From: Escherichia coli
GTDB taxonomy: Bacteria; Pseudomonadota; Gammaproteobacteria; Enterobacterales; Enterobacteriaceae
Assembly (NCBI RefSeq): GCF_030384885.1
Contig: NZ_CP128613.1
Reading direction: 5' to 3' (one strand)
DNA length: 64,000 bases
Shown: positions 2,187 through 61,545 of the stretch, piece by piece
Layout: each line of letters begins with the position of its first letter
Numbering within the stretch: the stretch's first letter is position 1
The notes under the pieces: generated by a model
What the model was told of the DNA's origin: nothing
Database searches by the model: none
The model's input: only the letters and a program-made list of their open reading frames with translations
Translations under genes and position numbers: made by a program

Positions 2187-2301
2187 GTAAACTCCGGGCT
2201 AATTCTCTGTCGCTATCATAGCGGTTTTTCAGTGACGAAGAAGATGTTGTTACTTTTCAATCCTTGCCGCTGTGGAAATGAAGGAGTATGTTAATAATAA
2301 C

Positions 2302-2315
2302 GTTCGTATACGAAC
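2302..2315. promoter_or_regulatory. Perfect 14-bp palindrome GTTCGTATACGAAC, candidate MarR-type operator upstream of ecdB
   Basis: Read directly; lies 18 bp upstream of the ecdB ATG in the divergent intergenic region. Confidence 0.4.
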
Positions 2316-2332
2316 AATTAAGAGAGTAAGCA

Positions 2333-2926
2333 ATGAAACTGATCGTCGGGATGACAGGGGCTACCGGTGCGCCTCTTGGTGTGGCATTACTGCAAGCGCT
2401 GCGGGAGATGCCGAATGTCGAGACTCATCTGGTGATGTCGAAGTGGGCGAAAACCACTATTGAACTGGAAACGCCTTACAGCGCTCGCGATGTTGCCGCC
2501 CTCGCTGACTTCAGCCATAACCCGGCAGATCAGGCTGCGACCATCTCTTCCGGCTCCTTTCGTACCGACGGCATGATCGTTATTCCATGCAGTATGAAAA
2601 CGCTCGCCGGTATCCGCGCTGGTTACGCCGATGGTCTCGTAGGGCGCGCGGCGGACGTCGTGCTCAAAGAAGGCCGCAAACTGGTGCTGGTGCCGCGTGA
2701 AATGCCGCTTAGCACCATCCATCTCGAAAATATGCTCGCACTTTCGCGCATGGGCGTGGCGATGGTGCCGCCGATGCCTGCCTTTTATAACCATCCCGAA
2801 ACGGTAGATGACATTGTCCACCACGTGGTAGCCCGCGTGCTGGATCAATTTGGCCTCGAACATCCTCACGCCAGGCGCTGGCAAGGGTTGCCGCAGGCCC
2901 GGAATTTTTCTCAGGAGAATGAATAA
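2333..2926 (+). CDS. ecdB: UbiX-like flavin prenyltransferase (phenolic acid decarboxylase subunit B), 197 aa
   Basis: N-terminal MKLIVGMTGATGA flavoprotein motif and UbiX/Pad1 length; first gene of a B-C-D operon. Confidence 0.8.
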   Translation: MKLIVGMTGATGAPLGVALLQALREMPNVETHLVMSKWAKTTIELETPYSARDVAALADFSHNPADQAATISSGSFRTDGMIVIPCSMKTLAGIRAGYADGLVGRAADVVLKEGRKLVLVPREMPLSTIHLENMLALSRMGVAMVPPMPAFYNHPETVDDIVHHVVARVLDQFGLEHPHARRWQGLPQARNFSQENE

Positions 2927-4353
2927 TGGCATTTGATGATTTACGCAGCTTCTTACAGGCGCTTGATGACCACGGCCAGTTACTGAAAATCAGCGAAGAG
3001 GTGAACGCGGAACCGGATCTGGCAGCCGCTGCCAACGCCACCGGGCGTATCGGCGACGGCGCGCCCGCGCTGTGGTTTGATAATATTCGCGGCTTTATCG
3101 ATGCCCGCGTTGCAATGAACACCATCGGTTCTTGGCAGAACCACGCAATTTCTCTCGGTCTGCCGCCAAACACCCCGGTTAAAAAACAGATTGATGAGTT
3201 TATCCGCCGCTGGGATAACTTCCCGATAGCCCCGGAGCGCCGTGCGAATCCTGCCTGGGCGCAGAACACCGTCGATGGCGACGAGATCAATTTGTTCAAT
3301 ATCCTGCCGCTGTTTCGTTTAAACGATGGCGATGGCGGTTTCTATCTCGACAAAGCGTGCGTGGTTTCCCGCGATCCGCTCGATCCGGATAACTTCGGCA
3401 AGCAGAACGTCGGCATCTATCGCATGGAAGTGAAGGGTAAGCGTAAGCTCGGCCTGCAACCGGTGCCGATGCACGATATCGCCCTGCATCTGCATAAAGC
3501 GGAAGAACGTGGTGAAGATTTGCCAATTGCCATCACGCTGGGTAACGATCCGATCATCACCCTGATGGGCGCCACCCCGCTGAAATATGATCAATCGGAG
3601 TACGAAATGGCGGGCGCGCTACGCGAAAGCCCGTACCCGATCGCCACCGCCCCGCTGACCGGTTTTGATGTGCCGTGGGGTTCAGAAGTGATCCTCGAAG
3701 GGGTTATCGAAAGCCGCAAACGTGAAATCGAAGGGCCGTTCGGTGAGTTTACCGGGCACTACTCCGGTGGGCGCAACATGACCGTAGTGCGCATCGATAA
3801 AGTCTCTTACCGCACCAAACCGATTTTTGAATCGCTCTATCTCGGCATGCCGTGGACCGAAATCGACTACCTGATGGGGCCTGCCACCTGCGTGCCGCTT
3901 TACCAGCAGTTGAAAGCCGAGTTCCCGGAAGTGCAGGCGGTGAACGCTATGTACACCCACGGCCTGCTGGCGATTATCTCCACCAAAAAACGCTATGGCG
4001 GCTTTGCCCGCGCAGTGGGCCTGCGTGCGATGACCACGCCGCACGGTCTGGGTTATGTGAAGATGGTGATTATGGTCGATGAAGACGTTGACCCGTTCAA
4101 CCTGCCGCAGGTGATGTGGGCGCTCTCGTCGAAAGTGAACCCGGCAGGCGATCTGGTGCAACTGCCAAATATGTCCGTGCTGGAACTCGACCCAGGCTCA
4201 AGCCCGGCGGGGATCACCGATAAGCTGATTATCGACGCCACCACGCCTGTCGCCCCGGACAACCGTGGTCACTACAGCCAGCCGGTGGTGGACTTACCGG
4301 AAACCAAAGCCTGGGCTGAAAAACTGACCGCTATGCTGGCCGCACGTAAATAA
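2926..4353 (+). CDS. ecdC: UbiD-family phenolic acid (4-hydroxybenzoate/vanillate-type) decarboxylase subunit C, 475 aa
   Basis: UbiD-family size and sequence character; start overlaps ecdB stop (translational coupling). Confidence 0.8.
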   Translation: MAFDDLRSFLQALDDHGQLLKISEEVNAEPDLAAAANATGRIGDGAPALWFDNIRGFIDARVAMNTIGSWQNHAISLGLPPNTPVKKQIDEFIRRWDNFPIAPERRANPAWAQNTVDGDEINLFNILPLFRLNDGDGGFYLDKACVVSRDPLDPDNFGKQNVGIYRMEVKGKRKLGLQPVPMHDIALHLHKAEERGEDLPIAITLGNDPIITLMGATPLKYDQSEYEMAGALRESPYPIATAPLTGFDVPWGSEVILEGVIESRKREIEGPFGEFTGHYSGGRNMTVVRIDKVSYRTKPIFESLYLGMPWTEIDYLMGPATCVPLYQQLKAEFPEVQAVNAMYTHGLLAIISTKKRYGGFARAVGLRAMTTPHGLGYVKMVIMVDEDVDPFNLPQVMWALSSKVNPAGDLVQLPNMSVLELDPGSSPAGITDKLIIDATTPVAPDNRGHYSQPVVDLPETKAWAEKLTAMLAARK

Positions 4354-4363
4354 GGAGAACAAG

Positions 4364-4600
4364 ATGATTTGTCCACGTTGTGCCGATGAACAGATTGAAG
4401 TGATGGCGAAATCGCCGGTGAAAAATGTCTGGACGGTCTACCAGTGCCAGCATTGCCTTTATACATGGCGCGATACTGAACCGCTACGTCGCACCAGCCG
4501 CGAACATTATCCCGAAGCCTTCCGTATGACGCAGAAAGATATTGATGACGCACCGATGGTGCCGAGCATTCCGCCGCTGCTGGCGGAAGGTAAGCGCTAA
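4364..4600 (+). CDS. ecdD: Small decarboxylase subunit D (BsdD/YclD-like), 78 aa, Cys-rich
   Basis: Small ORF with CPRC ... CQHC motifs immediately after the UbiD gene, as in bsdBCD-type operons. Confidence 0.65.
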   Translation: MICPRCADEQIEVMAKSPVKNVWTVYQCQHCLYTWRDTEPLRRTSREHYPEAFRMTQKDIDDAPMVPSIPPLLAEGKR

Positions 4601-4602
4601 AT

Positions 4603-4631
4603 AAAAGGTCCGATGCCCATCGGACCTTTTT
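4603..4631. terminator. Bidirectional rho-independent terminator between convergent ecdD and ygbN
   Basis: Stem ggtccgat/atcggacc with loop gccc, flanked by AAAA and TTTTT. Confidence 0.7.
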
Positions 4632-4638
4632 ATTAAGG

Positions 4639-6003
4639 TCAAATTACCGCCCATACGCACCAGGTAATTAAGAATCCGGTAAAACCGAGAATGGTCGTTA
4701 ACACTGTCCAGGTTTTCAGACCGTCTGCTACCGACAACCCCAGATATTTGGTCACAATCCAGAACCCTGAGTCATTAATATGTGACGCGCCAAGCCCACC
4801 AAAGCAGGCTGCCAGCGTCACCAATACGCACTGAATCGGATTCAATCCCATCACAGCTTCTGAGAGTAACCCGCCGGTTGTCAGGATTGCTACGGTTGCT
4901 GACCCCTGCGATGCACGCAGCGCCAGTGAAATAATAAATGCGGCTGGTAACAGAGGCAGGTCAATCATTTGTAGCATGTTGGCAAGGGCTTTGCCGACGC
5001 CCGATTCCACCAGCACTTTGCCAAATACCCCTCCAGCACCAGTAACCAAAATCACTACCGCCGCAGTGGGAAGGGCTGAGCCCATAATGTCGCTGGTGTG
5101 TTGTAAGCTCCAGCCGCGACGTAAAGCCAATAACCAGAATGCCAGCACCAGCGCAATCATTAGAGCTACCATTGGTGAGCCGATCAGCTGTAGCGTACCA
5201 AGCAGGGGATGCGAAGGCGGCATCAGTGTTGCGGAAACCGTACCCGCCATGATAATCGCGATAGGAATAACAATTAGCGAGGTGACCAGCGCGACGCCCG
5301 GTGGATTTATTTTATCGCTTAATTTTGTCGCGCCTTCCTCACTGGCCGGAGCCAGTTGCATCTGTTCCAGTACTTCCACCGACATCGCATATTGGCGCTT
5401 ATTGATTATTTTCGCTGCAAAGTAGCCAACAATCCCTACGGGAATAGAAATCGCAATACCGATGATGGTTAGCCAGCCGATGTCTGCGTGGAGTAACCCC
5501 GCTGCGGCGACAGGGCCTGGATGCGGCGGTACCGCCACATGAACAGTTAGCATGATTCCAGCGACAGGCAGGCCAAATTTGAGTGGCGATATTTTGGCAA
5601 CCTTGGCAAAACCGTAAATGATTGGCGCAAGAATAATAAAGCCGACATCAAAGAAGACGGGAATACCGAGGAAGAACGCTGCCAGAGTCAGCGCAGCGAT
5701 AGTTCGTTTGTCACCTAACTTGCGACTGAAATAATTAGCCAGTGACTCTGCACCACCAGAGTGTTCGATCATACGCCCCAGCATAGCGCCCAGACCAATA
5801 ATAATAGTGACGGAACCAAGCACACCGCCCATCCCGGCGATCATCACTTTACCCACTTCGCCCGCCGGTATACCCGCCGCAAGTGCGACTAACAGGCTGA
5901 CGAGGAGCAGAGCAACGAATGGTTGTACCTTTGCCTTGATGACCAGCAGCAACAGCATGATTACGCCAGTTAACGCAATGCATAACAATGTAATTGTGGA
6001 CAT
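4639..6003 (-). CDS. ygbN: GntP-family permease (putative threonate/tetronate transporter), 454 aa
   Basis: Polytopic membrane protein of GntP type; position and length match ygbN. Confidence 0.85.
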   Translation of the reverse strand: MSTITLLCIALTGVIMLLLLVIKAKVQPFVALLLVSLLVALAAGIPAGEVGKVMIAGMGGVLGSVTIIIGLGAMLGRMIEHSGGAESLANYFSRKLGDKRTIAALTLAAFFLGIPVFFDVGFIILAPIIYGFAKVAKISPLKFGLPVAGIMLTVHVAVPPHPGPVAAAGLLHADIGWLTIIGIAISIPVGIVGYFAAKIINKRQYAMSVEVLEQMQLAPASEEGATKLSDKINPPGVALVTSLIVIPIAIIMAGTVSATLMPPSHPLLGTLQLIGSPMVALMIALVLAFWLLALRRGWSLQHTSDIMGSALPTAAVVILVTGAGGVFGKVLVESGVGKALANMLQMIDLPLLPAAFIISLALRASQGSATVAILTTGGLLSEAVMGLNPIQCVLVTLAACFGGLGASHINDSGFWIVTKYLGLSVADGLKTWTVLTTILGFTGFLITWCVWAVI

Positions 6004-6091
6004 GGGAAACCCTGTCTGAAAGTTATAGTTAACCTACCCCATCCGTAGATGGGGGGATGTATGGGTACGTTGTAATTAGGGATTTAACGAA

Positions 6092-6868
6092 TTAGCGCCA
6101 GGCGTCAAACCAGCCAAGCCCTTCTTCGGTGAGGCCACGAGGTTTATATTCACAACCGATCCAGCCCTGATATCCCACCTCATCGAACAGGCGGAACAGC
6201 CACGGATAGTTGATTTCTCCATCGTCCGGTTCATGTCGATCAGGTAGTCCGGCAATTTGTACGTGCGCATATTTCCCGGCGTAATCGCGGATTAAATGTG
6301 TCAGGTTGCCATCTACTTTTTGCGCATGGAAAGTATCTAGTTGAATAAACACGTTATCTCGCGCAACCTCTTCAACAATAGCCAGTGCCTGATACTGGCT
6401 GGAGAAGAGATAATGAGGCTTAACGCCGGGGCTGAGTGCTTCAACCAATATTCGCTTGCCGTGTGGCGCAAAGCGGTCGGCAGCGTAGCGGAGATTATCA
6501 ATAAATACTGCCCGGTACCGTTCAGCATCTTCGCCAGCGGGCACGACGCCTGCCATCACATGGACTTGTTCACAATTGAGCGCCAATGCATATTCCAGTG
6601 CCAGGTCGATGTCTGCGCGTGCTTCGTGCTCACGTCCAGGAAGGGCGGATAATCCCCATTCTCCCGCATTAATATCTCCGGGAGCGGTATTGAACAGCGC
6701 CAGTGTCAGATGGTTTTGCACCAGTTGCTTTTGGATTTGCAGGGGGGAGTAGTCATAGGGAAACAGAAATTCCACAGCATCGAACCCGGCTTTTCGCGCT
6801 GCGGCGAAGCGTTCAATAAAAGGCACTTCGGTGAACATCATGGATAAATTAGCTGCAAAACGAGGCAT
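6092..6868 (-). CDS. ygbM: Hydroxypyruvate-isomerase-like TIM-barrel enzyme (2-oxo-tetronate isomerase), 258 aa
   Basis: Xylose-isomerase-like fold protein in the ygbJKLMN operon position. Confidence 0.85.
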
Positions 6869-57217: not shown

Positions 57218-57290
57218 AAAAAGGCCACTCGTGAGTGGCCAAAATTTCATCTCTGAATTCAGGGATGATGATAACAAATGCGCGTCTTTC
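57218..57290 (-). ncRNA. micA: MicA (SraD) small regulatory RNA
   Basis: Minus-strand sequence gaaagacgcgcatttgttatcatcatccctgaattcagagatgaaattttggccactcacgagtggccttttt matches MicA as I recall it; 3' hairpin plus U-tract. Confidence 0.85.
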
Positions 57291-57358: not shown

Positions 57359-57874
57359 ATGCCGTTGTTAGATAGCTTCACAGTCGATCATACCCGGATG
57401 GAAGCGCCTGCAGTTCGGGTGGCGAAAACAATGAACACCCCGCATGGCGACGCAATCACCGTGTTCGATCTGCGCTTCTGCGTGCCGAACAAAGAAGTGA
57501 TGCCAGAAAGAGGGATCCATACCCTGGAGCACCTGTTTGCTGGTTTTATGCGTAACCATCTGAACGGTAATGGCGTTGAGATTATCGATATCTCGCCAAT
57601 GGGCTGCCGCACCGGTTTTTATATGAGTCTGATTGGTACGCCAGATGAGCAGCGTGTCGCTGATGCCTGGAAAGCGGCAATGGAGGACGTGCTGAAAGTG
57701 CAGGATCAGAATCAGATCCCGGAACTGAACGTCTACCAGTGTGGTACTTATCAGATGCATTCGTTGCAGGAAGCGCAGGATATTGCGCGTAATATCCTGG
57801 AACGTGACGTACGCATCAACAGCAACGAAGAGTTGGCGCTGCCGAAAGAAAAGTTGCAGGAATTGCACATCTAG
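57359..57874 (+). CDS. luxS: S-ribosylhomocysteine lyase LuxS, 171 aa
   Basis: [23 protein letters not shown] ... HTLEHL metal motif. Confidence 0.95.
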
Positions 57875-57887
57875 TCAATTGAAGAGG

Positions 57888-57917
57888 CCGGGCAGGTGAT
57901 ATCACCGCCCGGTTTTT
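57888..57917 (+). terminator. Rho-independent terminator after luxS
   Basis: Hairpin ccgggcaggtgatatcaccgcccgg followed by TTTTT; abuts the stop of the convergent gene at 57919. Confidence 0.75.
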
Positions 57918-57918
57918 A

Positions 57919-59031
57919 TTACCTGTCAGTCACCCGATATTCCACGCTATGTGCTTCATCAGGTTGAGGAACTTCCAGCCTTGAGGCCATCCGCATCACG
58001 ACCGCTTCAGGAACGGCATACTCGCGCCTGGCATTTTGCTGCTTCCATTGCGCCCATGGCACTTCCAGATAAACGATTTTTACTCGTGCGCCGTAAGCCG
58101 TAAACAGACTGATGAGCTGGCTACGCAGTTGGCGGGTAATGTTCGTTGCATTCCAGATGAACGGCTTTTTCTGGCGTAAAAAAACGCGCGCCTCTTCTTT
58201 TGCCTGTTGCACAATACGCCCGGTCGCGGTTTTGTCGTCCGGGCTGGCATTGATTCGCCGCCGCATATCATCAAGGCTGATAACGTCCATTCCCTGGCAC
58301 TGTTCACTGATATAGCGATCTTTGCCCATACCCGGTAAGCCACACAGCAAAATGACCTCAAAAGGTTCAGCCTCCCAGGGAACAAAATCAGGAGAACTTT
58401 GTTCATGGGTCAGATAATGCCAGCGTGCGGAATCAGACACGAACGAGCGCACTTTTCCCCAACACTGTTGCTCCTGGCAAAATAGCTCGAACAGATCGAT
58501 GCGTTCCAGCATTGATTGCTGATCATGACAATGGCGACCAAGCAGATCGGCACGAGCAAGCAAAGCGAGCAGACGCGTGTCGATACGCATTGCAGCCGTG
58601 AGCAGCAAACGCTCCGGTTCCGGACGTTCTAGTAACCATAGCGGTAACCCATGCAGACGCACCAGTGCAACAATTTGCTCGCGTAGCACGAACGGCGTCG
58701 GGATATCGCGCCATAAAATTTGTCGGGCCGTCAATTCACCCCGACGAGCATGACCAGGAGACTGAATACGTCCGTTTTCCTGCACGGTAGTACTGCGCTT
58801 TTCAACGTCATGCAATAACGCCGCCGCCCATAAAATTTCCTGCTGCTGAGCGGGGAGTTGCTGGAACTCTGGCAGAGCCACGAGTGCATTCAGCACCATT
58901 TCAGTATGCACACCAACGTCGCCTTCACCATGATGCTCCGGGTCTTGCGGCGTATTATGCATATCCTCAACCCAGCTAAAACGCTGGCGTAGCGTCGACC
59001 AGCGTTTGTCGTCGGTAAGTTGCCAAATCAT
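57919..59031 (-). CDS. HD-domain phosphohydrolase fused to a P-loop polynucleotide-kinase-like domain, 370 aa
   Basis: N-terminal HD signature ([10 protein letters not shown] ... LLHDVEK); C-terminal Walker-A-like GLPGMGKD and DVISLDD; not present between luxS and emrB in K-12 as I recall. Confidence 0.6.
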
Positions 59032-59735
59032 GACTGTTCTCCATAAGCGAACTCATGGGCCATCCGCGCCCGTCGCCAGTGGCGTTTCCAGTGCTCGGTG
59101 GTTTTGACATGATTTTTGCGTACATACTTGAAGACGTTATGCGAAAAGTCAGCGACGGAAAACGCATCACTATTCCGGCTGACAATGCCTTCCAGCGTAC
59201 AGGGTTGTCCGGTTTGCGTATCCCAGGGATCGAACGCACCGCGCGCATTGGTCAGCGCCAGAAAATCACGTTGCCAGCTTTTTTCATCATTCCCCGGCTG
59301 CGGGCCGGAGATTTCGGGAACGCAGGGGAAATCAAACAGAGCGGCGTAAAACTGCACCTCTTCCCAGCTCAGCCACATATCCTGGCAGCGAACGGCAAAC
59401 AGATAAAAATCCTGCTCCAGGGCGCGATATTCAATCGAATGAACGGCATAAAGATTTTCACCAAACAACTCCAGATCGCCGAGATCGTTTTTCAGCAGTT
59501 GCCAGCGTTGGCGAATTTTATAGGTCCATGCCGATTGTGTAGGCGCGGCATGGGAACGGGCAAACACGCCGTAGCGGTTAAGGCAGTTATTTTCACCGTC
59601 GAGTTTTTCAGTATGTACCAACTGCGAAATTGCCTGCATATCTTGCCAGTAACTGGCGTTAATGCGGTCATCGCTGGTGGTGCCAGGGGAGAAGGGGTAA
59701 TGCCAGGTTCTCCCGTATTTACGTTGGGTATTCAT
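59028..59735 (-). CDS. Small ATP-dependent nucleic-acid (RNA) ligase-like nucleotidyltransferase, 235 aa
   Basis: Covalent nucleotidyltransferase motifs in order: [41 protein letters not shown]; 4-bp overlap with the downstream gene. Confidence 0.6.
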
Positions 59736-59954
59736 AATAATCCATTATTTTTTGTGTAATAAACGTACGCCCGCGAGGGTGCGAGTTATGGGGTTAAAAA
59801 AAATGTGAGTATCACCCGCGAAAGCGAGGGCGAAGAAAAAAGAGAATTAACAACCTGAGCGAATGCTCAGAACCGGTTAATGGTGAATGGAAGAGTTTGG
59901 AGCGGCGAAAAGATACACCGTTTGAGATGATAAAACAACCGTTTACAGAATGAG

Positions 59955-59980
59955 CAAATAAAAAGGGAGCCGCAGCTCCC
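59955..59980 (-). terminator. Rho-independent terminator after emrB
   Basis: Hairpin gggagc-cgca-gctccc with U-tract on the minus strand. Confidence 0.7.
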
Positions 59981-59990
59981 TTTAACAACC

Positions 59991-61529
59991 TTAGTGCGCA
60001 CCGCCTCCGCCGCCACCTGCGCCAAATGGCGGTTTAGCAAACCACACCAGCCCCAGCAGGACGAGGAATATCCCGGCTGACATCCAGAAGATCTCATTGG
60101 CGGAAATAATCAGCCCCTGATTAGTGATCTGCTGGGCAATCCAGCCTGATGCCTGTTGTTGCGTCATCCCCAGCCCTTCCAGTTGGCTGTACATCGCCTG
60201 AGCGTTCGGGTTAAACGGGTTTACCGACTCGGTTAACTGTGCGTGGTGCATCGACTCGCGGTTAGTCCACATGGTGGTGGTGATGGATGTGCCGATAGAC
60301 CCCGCCAGCGTTCGCGTAAAGTTAGAGAGGCTCGATGCCGCCGCCAGTCGCTCCGGTGGCAAACCAGACAGCGTAATGGTGGTCAGCGGCATAAAGAAGC
60401 AGGCCACCGCGAAGCCCTGGATAAACTGCGGCCAGGCCGACGCGCCAAAATCCATCCCCGGTTCAAAGGTATAAGCACGCCAGTAGAAGCAGACGGCATA
60501 CATGATAAAGCTGAAGGTTACCAGTCGCCGCATATCCAGTTTATGCGCGAAGCGGCCGATAATCGGCGACAGGATCACCGGAATAATCCCTACCGGCGCA
60601 GAGGCAAGCCCCGCCCAGGTTGCTGTATAGCCGTAGACTTCTTGCAATAACTGCGGCAGCAGAACAATCGCGCCGAAGTAGAGCATATACGCGAGGCTGA
60701 TACACAAGCAGCCGATGGTGAAGTTGCGCGATTTAAACAACGACAGATCCACTATCGGATTATCGTCGGTCAGCTCCCAGACAATCAGGAAGCAGATAGC
60801 CACCACCGCCACCACGGTGAGGATGATTATTTCCTGCGATGAGAACCAGTCCAGCTCTTTACCGCGGTCGAGCATAATCTGCAGGCTGCCGATACCAATC
60901 ACCAGCAGTGCCAGCCCCACGGCATCAATCCGCCGCCGTTCGGTGCGGGTTTCGCGTCCGCGCAGGGTTTGCAGTGTCATCAACACCACCGCCACGCCAA
61001 TCGGCACGTTGATGAAGAATATCCAGCCCCAGTGGTAATTATCGCTGATATAACCGCCGAGGATCGGGCCGCAAATTGGCGCGACAATCACCGTCATCGA
61101 CCACAACGCCAGCGCGATCGAGCGTTTTGCTGGCGGGTAGTTATTCAGCAATAGACTTTGCGAAAGCGGGATCAACGGCCCGGCGACAATTCCCTGAATC
61201 ACGCGGAAGAAGATCAGCATATTCAGGCTGCTGGAGACACCACACGCCCACGACGCAATAGCAAAGGCGATGGTCGACCAGAGGAACAGCTTCACTTCCC
61301 CAACGCGCTTTGCCAGCCAGCCGGTAAGCGGGATCGAGATGGCATTCGCCACCCCGAAAGAAGTGATTACCCACGTTCCCTGGCTGAGCGATGAGCCCAG
61401 ATTCCCGGCGATAGTGGGGATCGCCACGTTAGCAATGGTGGAGTCCAGCACCTGCATGAATGTCGCCAGTGACAGCGCAATCGTCATAATGACCAGTTGC
61501 GCGCCTTCCAGCGGTTTTTGCTGTTGCAT
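59991..61529 (-). CDS. emrB: Multidrug efflux MFS transporter EmrB, 512 aa
   Basis: 14-TMS MFS protein beginning MQQQKPLEGAQLVIMTIALSLATF. Confidence 0.92.
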   Translation of the reverse strand: MQQQKPLEGAQLVIMTIALSLATFMQVLDSTIANVAIPTIAGNLGSSLSQGTWVITSFGVANAISIPLTGWLAKRVGEVKLFLWSTIAFAIASWACGVSSSLNMLIFFRVIQGIVAGPLIPLSQSLLLNNYPPAKRSIALALWSMTVIVAPICGPILGGYISDNYHWGWIFFINVPIGVAVVLMTLQTLRGRETRTERRRIDAVGLALLVIGIGSLQIMLDRGKELDWFSSQEIIILTVVAVVAICFLIVWELTDDNPIVDLSLFKSRNFTIGCLCISLAYMLYFGAIVLLPQLLQEVYGYTATWAGLASAPVGIIPVILSPIIGRFAHKLDMRRLVTFSFIMYAVCFYWRAYTFEPGMDFGASAWPQFIQGFAVACFFMPLTTITLSGLPPERLAAASSLSNFTRTLAGSIGTSITTTMWTNRESMHHAQLTESVNPFNPNAQAMYSQLEGLGMTQQQASGWIAQQITNQGLIISANEIFWMSAGIFLVLLGLVWFAKPPFGAGGGGGGAH

Positions 61530-61545
61530 CACACGCACCTCTGGA

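Follow-up and report, generated by a model that had tools for sequence, protein, structure and literature searches.

A probably ancestral and repeatedly lost candidate RNA-repair operon between luxS and emrB of Escherichia coli

Introduction

Enzymes that heal and seal broken RNA ends are known from phage T4 and from bacteria, and a two-gene cassette of predicted enzymes of this kind is described here from Escherichia coli. The cassette, rnl-hdpnk, occupies positions 57875-59990 of a 64,000-nucleotide (nt) stretch of one E. coli genome (contig NZ_CP128613.1; hereafter the window), between luxS and emrB. The window is matched at 100% by NZ_CP027579.1 and was assigned to E. coli 2013C-4282. In our reading, to which a probability of roughly 0.8 is given, it is a self-contained operon with its own promoter and leader, which would repair broken RNA by healing and sealing, and which is ancestral at this site, mostly vertically inherited and repeatedly lost. 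About one in five E. coli carry this operon intact and under selection. It escaped study because K-12 lacks the cassette, and a literature search for the luxS-emrB junction found nothing. The repair family has been described before; the unstudied E. coli member is new, and current ideas are not overturned.

The nearest described counterpart comes from Runella slithyformis, in which HD-Pnk combines a 2',3'-phosphoesterase with a 5'-kinase and a ligase-like open reading frame (ORF) lies just upstream in an overlapping frame (PMC6097658). The Runella ligase-like protein forms an enzyme-AMP intermediate, and none of the 3'-OH/5'-PO4 substrates tried was sealed (PMC6097658). The E. coli locus shares with this cluster the fusion of an HD phosphoesterase with a P-loop kinase and the small ligase-like ORF directly upstream and overlapping. 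It differs in having no adjacent Tpt1 or methyltransferase-HIT genes, in its fixed slot within the Enterobacteriaceae and in its lineage-specific conserved leader. HD-Pnk homologues reportedly occur in 11 phyla, often together with a ligase, and the Runella enzyme is said to process DNA ends as well as RNA ends in vitro. Homologues in the Bacteroidota (Cytophagales, Chitinophagales) are 54-58% identical over their full length and keep the same ligase-then-HD-Pnk order. From the described arrangement and these same-order homologues, rather than from the Runella protein itself, the cassette appears to belong to the Runella ligase/HD-Pnk family.

Other systems are more distant. The T4 enzymes (Pnkp with Rnl1 or Rnl2) follow the same logic as that predicted for the cassette, in which the 3' end is healed, the 5' end phosphorylated and the break sealed by an ATP-dependent ligase. 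The cassette kinase is homologous to T4 Pnk, and the ligase resembles T4 Rnl2 in fold. However, 3' healing is the task of a DxDxT (HAD-type) phosphatase in T4 and would be that of the HD domain in the cassette. Furthermore, the cassette ligase is a bare nucleotidyltransferase domain without the C-terminal domains of Rnl1 and Rnl2, and the cassette is chromosomal, not phage-borne. The bacterial Pnkp-Hen1 systems are likewise sporadic repair cassettes, and the P-loop kinase is related to that of Clostridium thermocellum Pnkp. In contrast to them, the cassette has no Hen1 methyltransferase or metallophosphoesterase domain, and its ligase is a separate protein and not a domain of Pnkp. RtcB systems (rtcBA; rtcB2-prfH) are, like the cassette, candidates for anti-ribotoxin RNA repair, but RtcB joins 3'-P and 5'-OH ends directly with GTP, and neither rtcB nor prfH is present in the window cassette.

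The cassette and its two proteins

The luxS gene (57359..57874, plus strand; stop codon 57872-57874) and emrB (59991..61538, minus strand; stop codon 59991-59993) are convergent. The 2.1-kb segment between them holds two overlapping minus-strand ORFs, the ligase gene (59028..59735) and the HD-Pnk gene (57919..59031). The 3' end of the former and the start of the latter share 4 nt (ATGA), and a GGAG is located 7 nt before the ATG of the HD-Pnk gene. The surrounding genes, as annotated, stand in the canonical core order, alaS-csrA-tRNA-yqaB-yqaA-gshA-luxS on one side of the cassette and emrB-emrA-emrR-ygaH-ygaZ on the other.

The first gene encodes a protein of 235 amino acids (aa) predicted to be a stand-alone ATP-dependent nucleotidyltransferase of the RNA-ligase family (Pfam PF09414, RNA_ligase, 4.1e-28), a family of 1,659 clusters at 50% identity. 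Motif I reads HTEK44LD46G47EN49 (KxDGxN, with the lysine nucleophile), motif III FGE93N, motif IV E182-G183-IVSR and motif V VFK203YVRK. Across 78 diverse homologues, K44, D46, E182, G183 and K203 never vary, and G47, N49 and E93 are kept in 90% or more. The AlphaFold2 model built on this 78-sequence alignment (predicted local distance difference test score, pLDDT, 94.8; predicted template modelling score, pTM, 0.91) has the fold of an RNA-ligase nucleotidyltransferase. Foldseek returned 29 PDB matches at E<=1e-3, all of them RNA ligases or RNA-ligase-family domains except 3qwu, which was deposited as a putative DNA ligase. Naegleria NgrRnl (Rnl5), archaeal Rnl3, T4 Rnl2 and Trl1 are the nearest folds (template modelling score, TM, ~0.5; 14-20% identity), and REL1 was matched as well. 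When normalised to the target, TM is mostly 0.3-0.4, and 0.53 for 1s68, a 233-residue nucleotidyltransferase fragment. The accessory domains that define Rnl1 to Rnl5 (C-terminal in Rnl1/2/3/4, an N-terminal OB domain in Rnl5) are all missing from this single-domain protein. Searches of the PDB by sequence, with the single protein and with a 12-sequence profile, found no relative; matches to hemocyanin and designed-repeat proteins were discarded as spurious.

The second gene encodes a 370-aa protein of the HD-Pnk type, a predicted end-healing enzyme with an N-terminal HD phosphoesterase domain and a C-terminal P-loop polynucleotide 5'-kinase domain. Residues 226-355 match Pfam AAA_33 at 3.6e-32. 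NCBIfam gave weak matches to Pnkp kinase, HDIG and the HD region of CCA enzymes. The C-terminal half of a 15-sequence profile matches T4 Pnk (1ltq), the kinase domain of CthPnkp (4gp7) and the tRNA kinase PSTK, and its N-terminal half matches the HD domain of CCA- and A-adding enzymes at ~1e-5. The HD metal-ligand pattern (H34, H74-D75, H94, H127, D162) is invariant in 15 homologues from three phyla. The same holds for the P-loop residues G236-K237-D238 and for D254 of the LDD motif, from E. coli to Bacteroidota and Lachnospiraceae.

Both genes are maintained under purifying selection, with ratios of nonsynonymous to synonymous divergence (dN/dS) of 0.07-0.12. Within E. coli, the ratio is ~0.07 for the ligase and ~0.12 for HD-Pnk, and between genera the dN of the cassette genes stays well below the saturated dS. 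They are less constrained than the housekeeping flanks (dN/dS ~0.01).

Age and inheritance

The cassette was followed across the family with one genome per species and homologue look-ups, luxS being seen on the far side where it fell within the fetched DNA. The ligase-then-HD-Pnk pair occupies the same emrB-luxS slot in E. albertii, in two divergent (cryptic) Escherichia lineages and in Salmonella enterica (salamae and others). It is also found there in Citrobacter amalonaticus, C. europaeus, Kosakonia, Klebsiella spallanzanii, Phytobacter, Superficieibacter and the 'Enterobacter' sp. BIGb0383, UBA3516 and ENNIH3 lineages, so that at least ten lineages beyond E. coli carry it. Ten metagenome contigs have the same arrangement.

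Neighbour-joining (NJ) trees of the cassette proteins and of EmrA+EmrB are congruent. Both group Escherichia, Salmonella with Citrobacter, and Kosakonia with UBA3516 and ENNIH3, with Phytobacter nearby, and the only clear conflict is K. spallanzanii. Cassette and flank distances correlate with a Pearson coefficient of 0.66. Within Escherichia, the dS of the cassette (0.17-0.30) is of the same order as that of the flanks (0.08-0.38).

The type strain of E. albertii retains the last 88 HD-Pnk codons, joined directly to the sequence before the emrB hairpin (locus 4960-5465). The deletion measures 1.77 kb and is equivalent to window positions ~58180-59948. Another E. albertii strain has an intact cassette; E. 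albertii is one loss caught in progress. Since the same slot is occupied in many lineages, the trees are congruent and E. albertii bears a scar, the cassette would be ancestral and the K-12 state derived. The data support a cassette that has been at this spot since before the enterobacterial genera split, that was inherited mainly vertically and that was lost repeatedly, including from most E. coli and K-12. As a separate observation, the luxS hairpin and the HD-Pnk stop are separated in both E. albertii loci by ~150 nt of inserted sequence, read by eye as a repetitive extragenic palindrome (REP) or bacterial interspersed mosaic element (BIME).

Within E. coli, 999 of the 5,426 complete genomes (18%) have the cassette, always on the chromosome, once per genome and at this site. 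The K-12-type junction is present in 4,312, and ~115 have something else. In ~80% of E. coli, the place of the cassette is taken by 63 bp of unrelated spacer that form one bidirectional hairpin. In K-12 MG1655, these 63 bp are the whole emrB-luxS gap and hold no cassette genes; the hairpin is flanked by an A-run and, at its opposite end, by a T-rich stretch, and neither cassette-side hairpin is present. The spacer was considered as a deletion remnant of the cassette and rejected, as local alignment gave no better result than shuffled controls.

Carriers include B2 strains such as S88 and ST131 as well as strain W. E. coli W and S88 differ by ~3% in the cassette and in the flanks alike, and W and K-12, with virtually identical flanks, differ only by the presence or absence of the cassette. 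Several carriers have damaged copies. Strain 0H23 has an IS30 insertion at the emrB end, C325 an IS3 insertion in the ligase gene and an internal stop in the kinase gene, and C25 a frameshifted ligase gene. The 3' part of luxS (57650-57874) and much of emrB (59991-60800) have a dS of 0.14-0.20 among E. coli strains, with mosaic patterns, and gshA and emrA lie lower (0.03-0.12). The raised values near the slot suggest old haplotypes or frequent recombination.

The cassette could instead be a recently acquired islet, that is, a mobile insertion whose mobility genes have since been lost. Its variable presence in E. coli would fit such an origin, as would the window allele, which is only ~94% identical to the common E. 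coli allele, and one documented transfer between genera (see next section). However, the shared slot in ten or more lineages, the trees congruent with the flanks, the similar synonymous divergence and the E. albertii deletion scar are not those of a newcomer, and the usual marks of mobility are missing. No integrase, transposase or other recombinase lies in or beside the segment, where the only domain matches are the ligase and the kinase and the annotated neighbours are core genes; nor is there a tRNA target. The repeat search found no pair of direct or inverted repeats bracketing 57875-59990 and returned only scattered 10-21-nt matches at chance level. A XerCD site was tried at the 3' end of emrB (GGTGCGCA) and rejected: by eye it resembles the XerC arm of dif, but the remainder does not (~15 of 28 positions).

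Composition was compared with that of the 47 other ORFs of the window. GC content is 0.520-0.530 for the cassette genes against 0.538 +/- 0.025, GC at third codon positions (GC3) 0.53-0.57 against 0.585 +/- 0.053, and the codon adaptation index (CAI), computed with Sharp-Li E. coli weights, 0.28-0.29 against 0.36 +/- 0.07. Leave-one-out codon-choice log-likelihoods gave z = -1.2 and +0.2 for the two genes. All four measures are within ~1.2 standard deviations of the resident ORFs, and the GC profile is flat across the segment. In the Enterobacteriaceae plasmids and phages searched the cassette is absent. Searches with the HD-Pnk protein gave no match above 60% identity on true plasmids or phages in the plasmid and phage collections, and the distant homologues (<60% identity) that these collections did yield are mostly on megaplasmids or chromids (secondary chromosomes). 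Two 'Proteus plasmids' with HD-Pnk homologues turned out to be 4-Mb chromosomes. A recent arrival is therefore very improbable, and this explanation is already largely refuted.

An old chromosomal islet, variably present and not recently inserted, was also the view of the original prediction, made from the window alone. The synteny, trees, dS values and E. albertii scar bear it out, and the comparison of the luxS-emrB junction across genera that it had proposed places the cassette in the same slot throughout the lineages listed above. Its K-12 gene order was right, most E. coli are without the genes, the host-like codon usage noted by eye is reproduced by computation, and annotation, domain and repeat searches agree with it that integrases, transposases, insertion sequence (IS) ends and direct repeats are absent.

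Transfer to Klebsiella spallanzanii and the slot as a hotspot

The conflict in the trees has a clear origin. The cassette genes of C. amalonaticus and K. spallanzanii are 95-96% identical at the nucleotide level, and emrA, emrB, luxS and gshA are only 79-84% identical. In a sliding comparison, identity is 94-99% from the emrB stop to the luxS stop (locus ~4027-6157) and falls to 76-84% within a few bases outside both stop codons. The last 60-500 nt of K. spallanzanii luxS and emrB are nearer to K. pneumoniae than to Citrobacter. Clearly, Klebsiella obtained exactly the block between the stop codons from a Citrobacter-like donor. Such sharp edges may have arisen when later recombination within the species trimmed the imported flanks, when very short conserved ends recombined, or by a mechanism dedicated to the exchange.

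The gap between emrB and luxS is a hotspot for several kinds of cargo. K. pneumoniae and an Enterobacter have an AraC-type regulator and a LeuA-like gene in the slot instead of the cassette. In UBA3516 and ENNIH3, the cassette is accompanied by FKBP-like, YuaE-like and LeuA/AraC genes, and in C. europaeus by a RafY-type porin. In one E. coli-like metagenome contig, emrB and the cassette leader are separated by 2 kb of inserted AT-rich DNA, which holds a 466-aa ORF and, as read by eye, an enterobacterial intergenic repeat (ERIC) element.

Conceivably, the cassette moves as a module, mobilised in trans or in a site-specific manner, with an exact stop-to-stop exchange that goes beyond ordinary recombination in the flanks and is guided, for example, by the terminator hairpins. 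The identity that ends at both stop codons, the native, Klebsiella-like ends of luxS and emrB in K. spallanzanii and the cargo that changes from genus to genus at this hotspot favour such a module. Yet this is a single event among ~15 lineages, the tree follows the flanks elsewhere, and the locus yielded neither a recombinase nor an att-like site nor conserved terminal repeats. Moreover, the copies have diverged by 4-5% since the transfer, long enough for recombination within the species to have eroded the imported flanks. A dedicated exchange is for these reasons considered unlikely. With mainly vertical descent kept as the preferred reading, the locus provides an evolutionary case of a family-old islet at one junction of convergent genes, with many losses and one precise replacement between genera.

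Proposed function

Breaks made by metal-independent RNases have 2',3'-cyclic phosphate and 5'-OH ends. By homology, the operon would perform heal-and-seal repair of broken RNA and possibly of DNA. First, the HD domain would open and remove the 2',3'-cyclic phosphate or the 3'-phosphate. Next, the P-loop kinase domain would phosphorylate the 5'-OH end. Finally, the ligase would seal the 3'-OH/5'-PO4 break via a lysyl-AMP on K44. The breaks in question would probably be those that ribotoxins (for example colicins, anticodon nucleases and the RNases of toxin-antitoxin systems) leave in tRNA or rRNA.

The genomic partners of the pair point to RNA. In Serratia, ligase and HD-Pnk genes form the distal half of acnB-[rtcB-prfH-rnl-hdpnk]-yacL (S. 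oryzae locus 2225-6116, and further Serratia loci). In three Bacteroidota loci, RtcB homologues (~30% identical to Serratia RtcB) lie within 1-2 kb of the pair. RtcB2-PrfH has been shown experimentally to protect E. coli ATCC25922 against colicin E3 (PMC9223846). A role in RNA repair is proposed because of these three lines, and the Serratia link with rtcB-prfH points to damage of the ribosome or tRNA by ribotoxins. Independently, two of the three Bacteroidota loci were seen by eye to have long, nearly identical non-coding stretches ~130-240 nt 5' of the ligase (e.g. GCCTTGTAATCTCATATCGCTTTCACTGACTTCCTC), with a weaker likeness in the third.

The operon could alternatively serve in the repair of DNA breaks or in defence against phages by abortive infection or other means, since its sporadic distribution is like that of conflict systems. 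PADLOC-DB 2.0, however, has no family for either protein at E<=0.01, the ligase belongs to an RNA-ligase Pfam family and fold, and the partners are RtcB and PrfH rather than DNA-repair genes. Such a function therefore seems improbable, and repair of RNA is preferred.

Several points weigh against the reading of an ancestral, mostly vertical RNA-repair operon. The Runella ligase sealed nothing that was tried, which puts the substrate and end chemistry in doubt, and simple sealing may not be the right model. The Pfam HD match of the E. coli protein is weak (0.0076; 17 bits against a cut-off of 22, below the gathering score), and the HD domain was therefore assigned from the conserved residues and the profile matches, not from this score. 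The Walker A motif GLPGMGKD (58320-58343, residues 230-238) has GKD in place of the usual GK[ST]; the Asp after the Lys is kept in 15/15 homologues. The transfer to K. spallanzanii shows that descent was not vertical throughout. The survey of species relied on exact peptide words, which do not establish absence elsewhere. Lastly, the reading does not account for the K-12 spacer, which has no sequence in common with the ends of the cassette.

As the partner ligase of this family is reported to adenylate itself and to have sealed no substrate tried, E. coli would be a tractable host in which to find the real substrate.

Promoter and leader

The 255 nt 5' of the ligase stand out from the other intergenic DNA at the locus by their much stronger conservation across genera. 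A conserved promoter and a ~170-nt 5' leader (59736..59961, minus strand), with blocks kept across ten or more genera, are part of the cassette and travel with it. A putative promoter lies at 59910..59938 (minus strand), with a -35 element TTGTTT (59933-59938), a 17-nt spacer and a -10 element TATCTT (59910-59915). The assignment is suggested by conservation: positions 1-3 (T, A, T) and 6 (T) of the -10 hexamer are invariant in a 10-genus alignment, and the equivalent in Superficieibacter is TTGCAA-17-TATTAT. The element is below the consensus threshold of the promoter scanner; it would place the start of transcription near 59903.

Further downstream, the motif TTCCATTCAC (59883..59892, minus strand) precedes the ligase ATG by 155-168 nt in all Enterobacteriaceae cassettes; in Serratia oryzae, it precedes rtcB by 164 nt. 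The motif contains TCCATT, complementary to AATGGA at the ribosome-binding site of the ligase (~59741-59752; conserved ATAATGGATTAT). This pairing, like an anti-Shine-Dalgarno, is present in the minimum free energy fold and has no covariation support. A hairpin, CUGAGC-AUUC-GCUCAG, follows at 59854..59871 (minus strand) with a U-rich tract behind it. It was flagged as terminator-like and may be an attenuator. The stem is kept in 22/22 distinct leaders, with wobble changes in Kosakonia and Superficieibacter and one mismatch in Enterobacter sp. BIGb0383. In C. europaeus, the closing pair has changed from C-G to U-A, compensatory by eye (CTGAGT...ACTCAG) and scored as U-G by the automatic alignment.

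The E. coli leader folds with z = -3.05 against shuffles. RNAalifold, run on 10 and then on 22 distinct leaders, retained nothing beyond the short hairpin and one conserved pairing, CCGC/GCGG, with a covariation term of ~0. The claim of a structured RNA was therefore dropped, only the hairpin being robust. In Rfam searches at permissive E-values nothing credible scored in 59736-59990, the only hit being MicA (see below).

The leader of the Serratia oryzae operon has its start, with the promoter and the TTCCATTCAC motif, in common with that of E. coli. In three Serratia species, the leader also contains a conserved ORF of 16 codons (MNYQALFTLCRSYPQA and variants) whose Shine-Dalgarno sequence is strong. 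A metagenome scan with the leader hairpin pattern gave 56 matches, of which 10 adjoin a cassette and 46 have no detectable ligase, HD-Pnk or flank gene.

Of all features, only the sharp-edged replacement between genera and the shared leader might open up something new. Taken together, they could mean that a recombinase-independent or trans-acting process swaps the block from stop to stop between genera, terminators included, and that the leader turns on operons for RNA repair in response to damage to the translation apparatus. This combination is speculative and has only a small chance of being right.

Boundaries of the cassette and minor observations

Two hairpins bound the cassette. The intrinsic terminator of luxS lies at 57883..57917 on the plus strand, with core arms CCGGGC (57888-57893) and GCCCGG (57907-57912), inner GGTG/CACC, the loop AUAU and a run of five T (57913-57917). 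Its folding energy is -23.8 kcal/mol (z = -4.7 relative to shuffled sequences). Read on the minus strand, the hairpin has -18.9 kcal/mol, is not followed by a U-run and sits directly after the HD-Pnk stop. E. albertii and Superficieibacter have a related hairpin on the luxS side.

On the other side, the 255 nt from the ligase ATG to the emrB stop end in the emrB terminator, AAAGGGAGCTGCGGCTCCCTTT followed by TTATTT. On the minus strand, this intrinsic terminator (59983..59962) reads AAAGGGAGCUGCGGCUCCCUUU and then UUAUUU, and folds at -16.5 kcal/mol (z = -2.9 against shuffles). A hairpin of this type also stands 3' of emrB in Citrobacter, Kosakonia, Phytobacter, UBA3516 and E. albertii. K. pneumoniae has it without the cassette; the hairpin thus belongs to emrB, and the cassette proper starts after it.

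A simple terminator scan was at chance level overall (4 found against 3.8 expected); the two bounding hairpins are supported by folding energy and by conservation across genera, and not by the scan. Both borders are as the original prediction had drawn them: the stop of the HD/kinase gene (57919-57921) abuts the luxS terminator, one base past its T-run, and the 5' region of the ligase gene reaches the emrB hairpin, placed here at 59962-59983. In Superficieibacter (locus ~3900-4100), the emrB terminator hairpin (ATGGGATCTGCGGATCCCAT) is present twice, around a ~110-nt insert, as if a small element had inserted there and duplicated the hairpin in doing so.

The small RNA MicA lies between gshA and luxS (57219-57290, minus strand), as in K-12, with an Rfam score of 83.9 bits against a gathering score of 41, and is ordinary.

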